A stretch of 56,439 nucleotides of DNA, filler included, from Dugesia japonica (lineage: Eukaryota), in the NCBI GenBank assembly GCA_001938525.1. It is 5 parts of 5 records of this genome, joined end to end, with 100 filler letters (N's around TTAATTAATTAA, not from the genome) between each part and the next. Parts side by side here need not be neighbours in the genome. Positions count along the whole stretch, not along the records: positions 1 to 13,932 come from MQRL01535463.1; 4 more parts are not named here. One strand, given 5' to 3'. The notes beneath the pieces are model-generated. The model saw only the letters and a list, made by a program, of their open reading frames with translations. It was not told the origin of the DNA and ran no database searches. Shown piece by piece: positions 11,875 through 13,740 of this stretch (within the stretch, counting starts at the first letter, position 1; every line of letters begins with the position of its first letter). Position numbers and translations under genes: made by a program.

Positions 11875-13740
11875 ATGAACAATAATATAAAGGAGATGAA
11901 ATTGTAAGTTTTTAATAATTAATTAATATACAAATTTCAATTTAGTTTTAGTAGTAATGCAGGAGAAAAGGCAGAAAATGAAGCCGGAATCATCGCAGTA
12001 AAAATCTTTTTATTTATTAATGTTATTTTATTTAAATTTATTTTTGTTCAGAAATAACGAAAAAAATCCAATTCGTATCAAAATACGAAAATTATGAGGT
12101 TCAACCACTCAAAAACAATTTGATACAGCAGAGAAATATATTAAGAAATTTAGTCCAAATACCCAGAAGTACTTAGACGAATTAGACTGGGTGACATGGG
12201 AATATGATGATCGGCGGGTAGTTTTAGATATTGCATATGCTCGTGCCGAACAAAGAGCACGGAATTGGGCACAAGATCAAGAAAAAGTTGAAATGTTACA
12301 AAGAGGAAAGAAAGAAAAAACAATATGTGATGTTGATTTGGACGAGGAATTTTATTAAACCGTACTACCCAGTACATGAAATGCTACTATTAAGTTGAAA
12401 TCGTAATATTTGTTTATTAATTATAATATAATTAATATAAAATATAAATTTAGTAGTGTTCCACAAACCAAAATATGTGCTCCTAATATGTCAGTTTATG
12501 CGNNNNNNNNNNNNNNNNNNNNNNNNNNNNNNNNNNNNNNNNNNNNNNNNNNAGGTAAAATAATATATAATACTGTTGTTTATTTAAATATTTTTTTATT
12601 TAGAATCAATGAAAATATAAGTGATAGGGAAGAGTCTACCCAACAACGATTCCGAAATTTTATATTCAAAATAGAGAAAAATAAATGTATCAATATTCAA
12701 AATGCTTTTATTAAAAAAATAGAAGGCAATGCTAAGTTTTTCTTAGCAAATGAAATTTCTGTGTCAGATGAATTGACAGTTATTGNNNNNNNNNNNNNNN
12801 NNNNNNNNNNNNNNNNNNNNNNNNNNNNNNNNAAATTTTTACAAGTTGAATCTATAAAAGGTAATATTTATTTAAATTTTAATATATGATTAAATGATAT
12901 TTATTTTAGGTACTCCGCATAGAGATATAAATAATGAAATCGATAAATTTAGCAAGGTTTATGGCAGTGCAAGATATGGTATAAAAATTAAAATAGGATA
13001 CCGCAAAAGAAGGGAACATTCAACATTTTGGGCAAGTGTTTTAGAAAGTCGTTCAATAGTTGATGGATTGGATCTTGTTGAATCTGAAAGACCACCTGAT
13101 TTTATTCGAATAAATAACAAGCTGCAATCTGTGTTGGCCTACAACTGCTAAATGTAATCGGAATCGTTTTTTAATTAGGAAGATGTGAAAAGAAATGTTT
13201 TTATAGGAGGAAGTGGTAATAATTATATTTTAATATAATATAGTTTTATAATATTTTTTTTATTTTAGGTATAGGTAAATCAAAATTTGCTCTAAGTCAT
13301 TTTAATAGTCCTCTACATGTGACTATTCTGCCGAGAAGATTGGGCCGACTAAATATCAATACGATAGATGTGTTATTGAAGATTTACAACTCCACACATG
13401 GAAACCAGAAGAAATAATTAATTTAACGGACACAACATATGAAACGTCCATCAATGTTTAATATGGCACCGGAATGATTGCGCTTAAAACCAAAATAATT
13501 ATCTGCTGTAATTCGATGGCGGATTTCATCAATGAAGAATGGAAAGATGGTAGAAAAGTAGCGATACAAAGGCTGTGTCAATTTTATTTATTTGGAACCT
13601 CAGTCCTTTTCAAAGAAGATGCTACACATTCAACTTCGTTACAGCCTATTATTTCCAAATTTAGTGATGAAATAAATGAATATTTCTCACAAAATTTTAA
13701 ATCATTTCAAATTATGAGAACGTATAAGGGTCCTCTTTAG
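11875..13740 (+). pseudogene. Intron-containing CRESS-DNA-virus-like Rep (degenerate HUH domain plus SF3 helicase)
   Basis: The spliced reading gives Walker A VFIGGSG|IGKSKFALSHF, Walker B CVIED, motif C KIIICCN and an AIQRL arginine-finger-like motif. GT-AG introns at 11904-~11945/51, 11998-12051, 12403-12453, 12555-12603, 12861-12909 and 13216-13268. Several stops and frameshifts. Confidence 0.78.

Follow-up and report, generated by a model that had tools for sequence, protein, structure and literature searches.

A decayed CRESS-type Rep gene with six intron-like stretches, probably one of many copies in the genome of Dugesia japonica

Gene content of the window

The stretch of DNA analyzed here (the window) comprises 56,439 nt of Dugesia japonica sequence, filler included, joined from five parts of five genome records. 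A CRESS-type Rep gene was located at 11875-13740 on the plus strand, and it resides in chromosomal DNA, as the same window holds a ZC3H15-like gene (PF16543), a DIM1 gene, and fragments of reverse transcriptase (RT) and DDE transposase genes. The RT fragment is a broken LINE-like gene at 8424-10411 (−) with a weak RVT_1 match (E of 0.008), and the transposase fragment, at 22995-23626 (−), matches DDE_1 with an E of 3.8e-17. At 35704-38432 (+), we found a broken viral fusion glycoprotein gene, two pieces of which match Pfam Monjiviricetes_fusion (PF24664; E of 1.5e-9 and 4.1e-17), and which appears to be an endogenous viral piece or a retroelement envelope. Several short open reading frames (ORFs) at 29318-31998 (−) carry motifs reminiscent of the DNA polymerase B region of Polintons or adintoviruses, and fragments on both strands of 48367-52540 presumably derive from the protease, RT, RNase H and integrase of an LTR retrotransposon. 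Repetitive sequences in the window include long palindromes at 43321-43463 (94%) and 55185-55338 (77%), possibly MITE-like or foldback repeats, and, apart from these, a dispersed repeat some 200 nt long with copies 76 to 89% alike at 462-669, 45650-45790 and 14033-14240, the last of these just to the right of the Rep element. At four places, a 12-nt AT palindrome stands between two unread blocks of equal length.

Intron-like stretches and decay of the Rep gene

The Rep gene is interrupted by six AT-rich GT-AG stretches of 42 to 54 nt, with a GC content of 0.06 to 0.12 versus 0.26 to 0.46 in the exons. A single filter, tuned after the six stretches had been seen, yielded 7 plus-strand intron candidates over the whole window, 6 of them inside the Rep gene, and none of 500 shuffles in 25-nt blocks reached 6 candidates (mean, 0.30; maximum, 4). 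All six introns proposed in an earlier reading of this DNA from the sequence alone (the sequence-only reading) are thus present as stretches of the expected kind.

Protein-level support was obtained for intron 5 (49 nt; 12861-12909, +), which lies within the HUH domain, and for intron 6 (53 nt; 13216-13268, +), since relatives align gaplessly across both junctions; the proposal that the latter intron splits Walker A was thereby upheld. P0003, a 45%-identical relative, ends at the same Walker A spot, as expected if it carried the same intron. Intron 2 (54 nt; 11998-12051, +) combines the sequence pattern with a contig-level junction in run X8, which is only guessed to be RNA: at least one X8 contig (depth of 6) swaps 62 nt for 8, a removal of exactly 54 nt that does not occur among the joints listed for the DNA run. 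For intron 1 (11904-11962, +; acceptor ambiguous between 11945, 11951, 11954 and 11962), intron 3 (51 nt; 12403-12453, +) and intron 4 (49 nt; 12555-12603, +), the assignment is by sequence pattern, because the N-terminal extension that they interrupt is not conserved. Thus, among the three introns that had been read as joining in phase (3, 4 and 5), the last gained support from the protein alignment and the first two stay pattern-based.

A check of junctions in RNA-seq had also been proposed, and its outcome was mixed. Beside the contig lacking intron 2, at least three X8 contigs run unspliced into or through Rep introns, and in two RNA-seq runs, of which about 6% and 25% were read, the Rep matches were partial in 186 of 186 and 259 of 260 reads, falling mostly at AT-rich places and leaving most coding bins at zero or near-zero depth. 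Support for splicing is therefore thin, and most of the introns are likely, by their sequence, to be spliced. The resemblance in intron size to the host gene ZC3H15 proved approximate, because the candidate introns of that gene are somewhat longer (51 to 66 nt) and less AT rich (GC of 0.13 to 0.19).

In-frame stops were found at about 12095, 12356-12379, 13149-13180 and 13459, together with at least one frameshift, at about 13330, and a likely pair of frameshifts at 13138-13185, in agreement with the earlier call that this copy is pseudogenized. Two blocks of N, in exons 4 and 5, are unread, and one of them covers part of nuclease motif II.

Domains and affinity of the Rep copy

The gene begins with an N-terminal extension of about 190 amino acids (aa) (11875-12640, +), which is encoded by exons 1 to 4 and the start of exon 5 and is broken by stops. 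The Rep of PEVE and the protein P0002 have extensions of 223 and 225 aa, to which that of the window copy shows no sequence likeness, and it matched nothing in Pfam or the Atlas. PEVE is a planarian extrachromosomal virus-like element and PIVE is an integrated Repbase element of Schmidtea mediterranea, according to PMC3198968. Next comes an HUH-fold domain (12641-12990, +), split by intron 5 and delimited by alignment to P0007, P0002 and PEVE Rep. The oligomerization domain and linker (12991-13185, +) keep 12 of 17 invariant columns, and the linker is interrupted and lacks about 10 aa compared with relatives. The SF3 helicase and C-terminal tail (13186-13740, +) keep 34 of 45 invariant columns and contain Walker A, Walker B and motif C in order, followed by an Arg-finger region, with one frameshift and one stop; the helicase is 52% identical to P0007 over 109 columns.

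For profile comparisons, we used a read-through of the gene with X placed at each break. Against a hidden Markov model (HMM) of 51 circovirus-like Reps it scored 19.7 bits over the oligomerization domain and helicase (best of 1000 shuffles, 5.6), and against the family HMM it scored 193 bits (best shuffle, 6.8). The last exon, which had not been used in finding the family, scored 80.8 bits against the family HMM. Other profiles returned less: Pfam gave nothing at its thresholds on five exon pieces, and neither a genomovirus-like helicase HMM (111 sequences) nor, on the read-through, a circovirus HUH-only HMM gave a direct signal over shuffles. The profile search that had been suggested was thus negative with Pfam on exon pieces and positive with the circovirus-like Rep HMM, and the identification of a CRESS-type SF3 helicase stood.

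A search with exon 6 returned 3 proteins among 1.84 billion, PEVE Rep being one of them, and further relatives came as 5 matches among 517 candidates and 61 among 7999. In blastp, the read-through aligned over all three Rep domains, with E values of 7e-45 to P0007 and 2e-35 to PEVE Rep, the closest named relative (35% identity over 228 columns). The Atlas queried with exon 6 and one exon 3 frame gave no usable match, the C-terminal piece found nothing in a word-based homolog search or a PDB sequence search, and scans of viral contigs with the family alignment and exon 6 found only PEVE and two 11-residue chance matches. In a quick tree of 75 rows, from which P0001, P0003, P0033, proteins shorter than 240 aa and 39 of the 51 circovirus-like Reps were left out, the window Rep, PEVE Rep, P0002, P0005, P0006 and P0007 formed a clade (SH-aLRT of 99) inside the unclassified CRESS Reps; the window Rep sits on a long end branch (1.29), and the nearest outgroups are Reps on contigs of 1 to 5 kb. 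The link to PEVE drawn in the sequence-only reading is borne out by these data.

P0007 was modeled as an intact stand-in for the broken copy (pLDDT of 74.4). In the PDB, this model matched vientovirus Rep, AAV2 Rep68 and circovirus Rep domains, its fold agreeing with circovirus Rep nuclease domains, and against BFVD it matched CRESS Reps, with PEVE Rep ranking third. The upstream domain of the read-through aligns to P0007 and P0002, whose fold and Pfam match are HUH. A cellular AAA+ ATPase and a Helitron PIF1, both named beforehand as competing identities, were rejected, since the best matches in sequence and in fold were CRESS Reps. As judged from sequence, the copy is a full Rep with N-terminal extension, HUH fold, oligomerization domain and SF3 helicase, and it belongs within the known PEVE/PIVE lineage. 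The sequence-only reading had missed the HUH fold, the oligomerization domain, the degenerate nuclease motifs, and the hairpin and tandem repeat upstream.

Degenerate nuclease motifs

Within the HUH domain motif I is recognizable, and the His of motif II and the Tyr of motif III are absent at the aligned positions. Invariant nuclease columns are kept at 3 of 10 positions versus 46 of 62 elsewhere in the Rep (Fisher P = 0.01), and in the 21 positions of the catalytic motifs at least 9 bases differ (P = 0.0004 under random decay of 12%; P = 0.014 under 20%); both tests were chosen after the pattern had been seen, on one full copy with part of motif II, and the third ligand, as N. An X8 contig over motif III differs from the window copy at 9 of 144 bases, 3 of which lie outside the motif, and cannot carry the full family motif, because this would need 7 changes and too few are left. 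The HUH stretch aligns at only 21 to 24% identity, and a Tyr sits a few residues downstream of motif III. All five relatives retain the catalytic Tyr, and the His motif is seen in four of them. The nuclease motifs thus appear selectively degenerate, which suggests a lineage-wide loss and sits poorly with rolling-circle replication by an autonomous element.

Introns and layout in related elements

The large segment of PEVE (L257) carries its Rep gene at 3248-4941 (+), within which we recognized GT-AG stretches at 3542-3589 and 4028-4083. Read with X at the junctions, the gene gives 530 aa free of stops, compared with 272 aa in the public annotation. Across the second junction, motif I again aligns to P0007 without gaps, and the annotated protein lacks both motif I and the N-terminal extension. 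An alternative 31-nt intron was dropped, since the 56-nt one keeps the frame and aligns gaplessly. PEVE Rep therefore appears to be spliced, and its annotation to miss two exons and motif I. A 277-aa ORF of PEVE was also considered as a capsid, and its single-sequence fold (pLDDT of 33.8) was unusable.

On a metagenome contig (L258), a Rep unit at about 1720-3650 has two candidate GT-AG introns (1963-2005 and 2864-2903), three 109-nt repeats and a TA-rich motif, and no capsid gene. It is flanked by the two halves of a non-LTR retroelement with Ulp1-protease and zinc-finger parts, the RT core of which is missing; Pfam gave no RT match, and we assign the retroelement to the RT type by motifs that we take to be diagnostic. 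Another copy of this family, in split form, is apparently represented by P0031 and P0033. The window has the order repeat, motif, Rep, which on a circle is equivalent to the order Rep, repeat, motif of L258.

Candidate introns number six in the window Rep and at least two each in PEVE and L258, at positions that differ among the three. These data suggest that introns are a family trait and were gained at different sites in each lineage. As the extrachromosomal PEVE Rep reads as a two-intron gene, introns indicate a nucleus with a spliceosome and not chromosomal residence; the earlier argument from dense introns therefore holds for a nuclear, spliceosome-using life and is weakened for long residence in chromosomes.

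Copies, boundaries and flanking sequence

In DNA run X1, 1556 contigs match the Rep element, 88 of them at 99% identity or more, 242 at 95 to 99%, 604 at 90 to 95% and 622 below 90%. Median depth over 11 coding bins was 3130 versus about 9 in the 8 single contigs listed, a ratio of 340 (180 to 970) that is only rough, as summed depth is no copy number. Single X1 contigs reach a depth of 600 to 900, which suggests a young, near-identical subfamily. The window copy is likely one decayed member of a repeat family that numbers roughly in the hundreds, and the diverged contigs and single-copy flank point to many copies that are presumably dispersed.

DNA depth is 257 to 471 over 11031-11232, rises from 471 to about 6900 at 11233, and is 2.8, the single-copy level, from 13859 on, right after the Rep gene. 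The left end is thus unclear, and longer copies with more genes may exist. Near it, two 30-nt direct repeats lie 55 nt apart (11116-11200, +; 70% alike), a candidate iteron-like array; a joint jumping back from 11192 to 11102 in X1 and X8 would follow from a larger number of units in other copies. A hairpin with a TA-rich loop (11298-11342, +) is a candidate origin: its z was −3.84 in a 56-nt piece, where 2 of 200 shuffles were as good, and only −1.02 in a 141-nt piece. The loop differs from the canonical nonanucleotide. The window and L258 each hold its TA-rich motif once, and the inverted repeat of PEVE has it too; the motif was defined after these three cases had been seen and 0.33 matches are expected per shuffled window, so it is a lead only.

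At the other end, a small GC-rich stem-loop (13729-13760, +; weak, z of −1.64) is a candidate 3′ end of the element, and loose contig ends clustering at 13758-13760 in X22 and X8 hint at a boundary there. RNA reads and contigs also match a 45-nt piece (13715-13759) between unrelated sequences on both sides, which suggests that short fragments of the Rep 3′ end exist elsewhere in the genome. Searches of the window for a terminal inverted repeat (TIR) and a target duplication returned only AT-rich chance matches, as did that for a terminal direct repeat (matches of 8 to 11 nt). The high-depth span, the left end of which is uncertain, holds no transposase and, by ORF reading, no long ORF besides Rep, and tblastx of both PEVE segments against the 56-kb window found nothing but Rep.

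Discussion

The window holds a broken Rep with homology over three domains, six intron-like stretches, many diverged copies, and no PEVE-like second gene beside it. The explanation that we put first, at about an even chance, is that this copy is likely one of hundreds derived from a capsid-less, Rep-only selfish replicon that was amplified and reinserted. Its Rep, likely made from spliced transcripts, would bind the upstream hairpin and repeats as a candidate origin and would copy a unit of roughly 2.5 to 2.7 kb as a nuclear DNA circle, copies of which would likely reinsert in chromosomes. No circle, alignment of termini or insertion site was observed for the Rep element; host repair of linearized circles would fit best, because the two known copies extend beyond the hairpin motif and, at the L258 insertion, the target has also lost its RT core. 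As the nuclease motifs look lost in this sub-lineage, its later spread would need a trans-acting sister Rep or helicase-only replication, and an intact sister Rep would act in trans via the shared hairpin motif. The many diverged copies in X1, the single-copy flank and the PEVE clade agree with the mobile or virus-like element that the sequence-only reading had offered. The alternative offered with it, a single domesticated Rep gene, was not supported.

Instead of a Rep-only replicon, the locus could be an incomplete remnant of PIVE, or of a whole PEVE-like virus with many integrations that brought its introns along, an account that we regard as possible and less probable; its corollary, that the capsid-like and NS1-like genes are missing from the window copy only, is equally tentative. 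PIVE_3p is listed beside PEVE Rep in Figure S7 of PMC3198968, where PIVE is also described as numerous and as encoding the NS1-like protein PIVE_1p. The spliced 530-aa frame of PEVE Rep itself, the TA-rich motif in the PEVE inverted repeat, and a depth worth about 30 to 50 copies that goes on to the left of 11233 point the same way. Against this, the other PEVE genes have no likeness anywhere in the 56 kb, about 850 nt upstream of Rep are noncoding where PEVE, some 100 nt from its Rep, carries a divergent gene, a TIR of the 243-nt type is absent, and L258 is likewise Rep only.

A further account, which overlaps with the Rep-only replicon and which we consider unlikely, is that a nuclease-dead Rep kept its helicase, with the HUH fold only binding the origin of a double-stranded episome, as in E1 and large T. 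The N-terminal extension of about 200 aa, which we take to parallel those of papillomavirus E1 and polyomavirus LT, counts in its favor, as do the lost invariant nuclease columns, the excess of base differences in the catalytic motifs, and the X8 contig that is too close to the window copy for the family motif III. Papillomavirus and polyomavirus initiators are described as bearing an inactivated HUH domain in PMC6668415, a precedent for such loss. The case is weakened by a single full copy partly unread in motif II, by the low identity of the alignment there, by the Tyr downstream, by the motifs that the five relatives keep, and by tests picked after the fact. It is quite improbable that the Rep gene was a mere passenger whose copies were made by a different transposon or through segmental duplication. 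A geminivirus-like Rep inside a TIR transposon of truffle, as reported in PMC3198968, and the degenerate nuclease would suit such a role; the high-depth span has no transposase and no TIRs, and depth drops to single copy right after the gene. Most improbable of all is a domesticated host gene or gene family: host-style introns and a helicase better kept than the nuclease would be in line with it, and the stops, the frameshifts, the hundreds of diverged copies and the two RNA-seq runs, in which full-match reads and real transcripts were absent, speak against it.

If a Rep-only replicon is the right explanation, a virus-type Rep would have settled in an animal genome and become a part of it that spreads by itself, offering a clean system in which to study intron gain and the virus-to-transposon transition. 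We raise, as a doubtful extension, that the family stands beside Helitrons and Replitrons as a third class of HUH-derived mobile elements in eukaryotes, capsid-less, CRESS derived and with an SF3 helicase, including a lineage with a noncatalytic, origin-binding nuclease. Such an element would have gained introns repeatedly and reached hundreds of copies in animal genomes, and its lineage with the altered nuclease would have taken, independently, the step that led to papillomavirus E1 and polyomavirus large T. Should the nuclease loss be lineage wide, the family would provide a living model of a rolling-circle initiator turned helicase only. New here are a repeat copy without a PEVE-like second gene, family-wide introns and selectively degenerate nuclease motifs, together with the correction to the PEVE Rep annotation; should the family prove to be PIVE itself, only the intron structure and the nuclease state would remain as gains.

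Comparison with known systems

Because an integrated relative, PIVE, is already in print, the Rep family is not new, and the term "undescribed" used for the element in the sequence-only reading cannot stand beside PEVE and PIVE as presented in PMC3198968. The word "intron" is absent from the main text of that paper, and the 2002 PEVE paper or the Repbase PIVE entry may already describe splicing or this very family. A literature search, with subscription journals mostly outside it, found nothing on an intron-rich, capsid-less HUH and SF3 repeat in animals; endogenized RepE1 cressviruses are reported from sea anemones in PMC11071296.

With PEVE, the window element shares the Rep clade, an N-terminal extension, short GT-AG introns (a new reading) and the TA-rich motif. 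In contrast to it, PEVE is extrachromosomal, has two segments with 243-nt TIRs, further ORFs and an NS1/E1-like helicase, and keeps its catalytic motifs intact, with its 2 candidate introns at other positions. PIVE, compared here by its description in PMC3198968, is likewise integrated and repeated, with a Rep (PIVE_3p) grouped with PEVE Rep, whereas its NS1-like PIVE_1p was not found in the window. Replitrons, as outlined in PMC10288648, are also eukaryotic and multicopy, with a CRESS-related HUH protein and an intron-bearing gene, but they have no helicase, carry short terminal direct repeats and occur in plants, algae and protists; the SF3 helicase fused to the window Rep sets it apart from them. 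Helitrons resemble the window element in an HUH fold fused to a helicase, a subterminal hairpin candidate and a high copy number, but combine a Y2 Rep with an SF1B (PIF1) helicase, according to PMC10288648, whereas the window gene encodes a CRESS-type Rep with an SF3 helicase. The Reps of unclassified CRESS-DNA viruses (Pfam Viral_Rep, PF02407) have the same HUH, oligomerization and SF3 domains in the same order; unlike these viruses, the window Rep is chromosomal and repeated, with six introns, a long N-terminal extension and no capsid gene seen.
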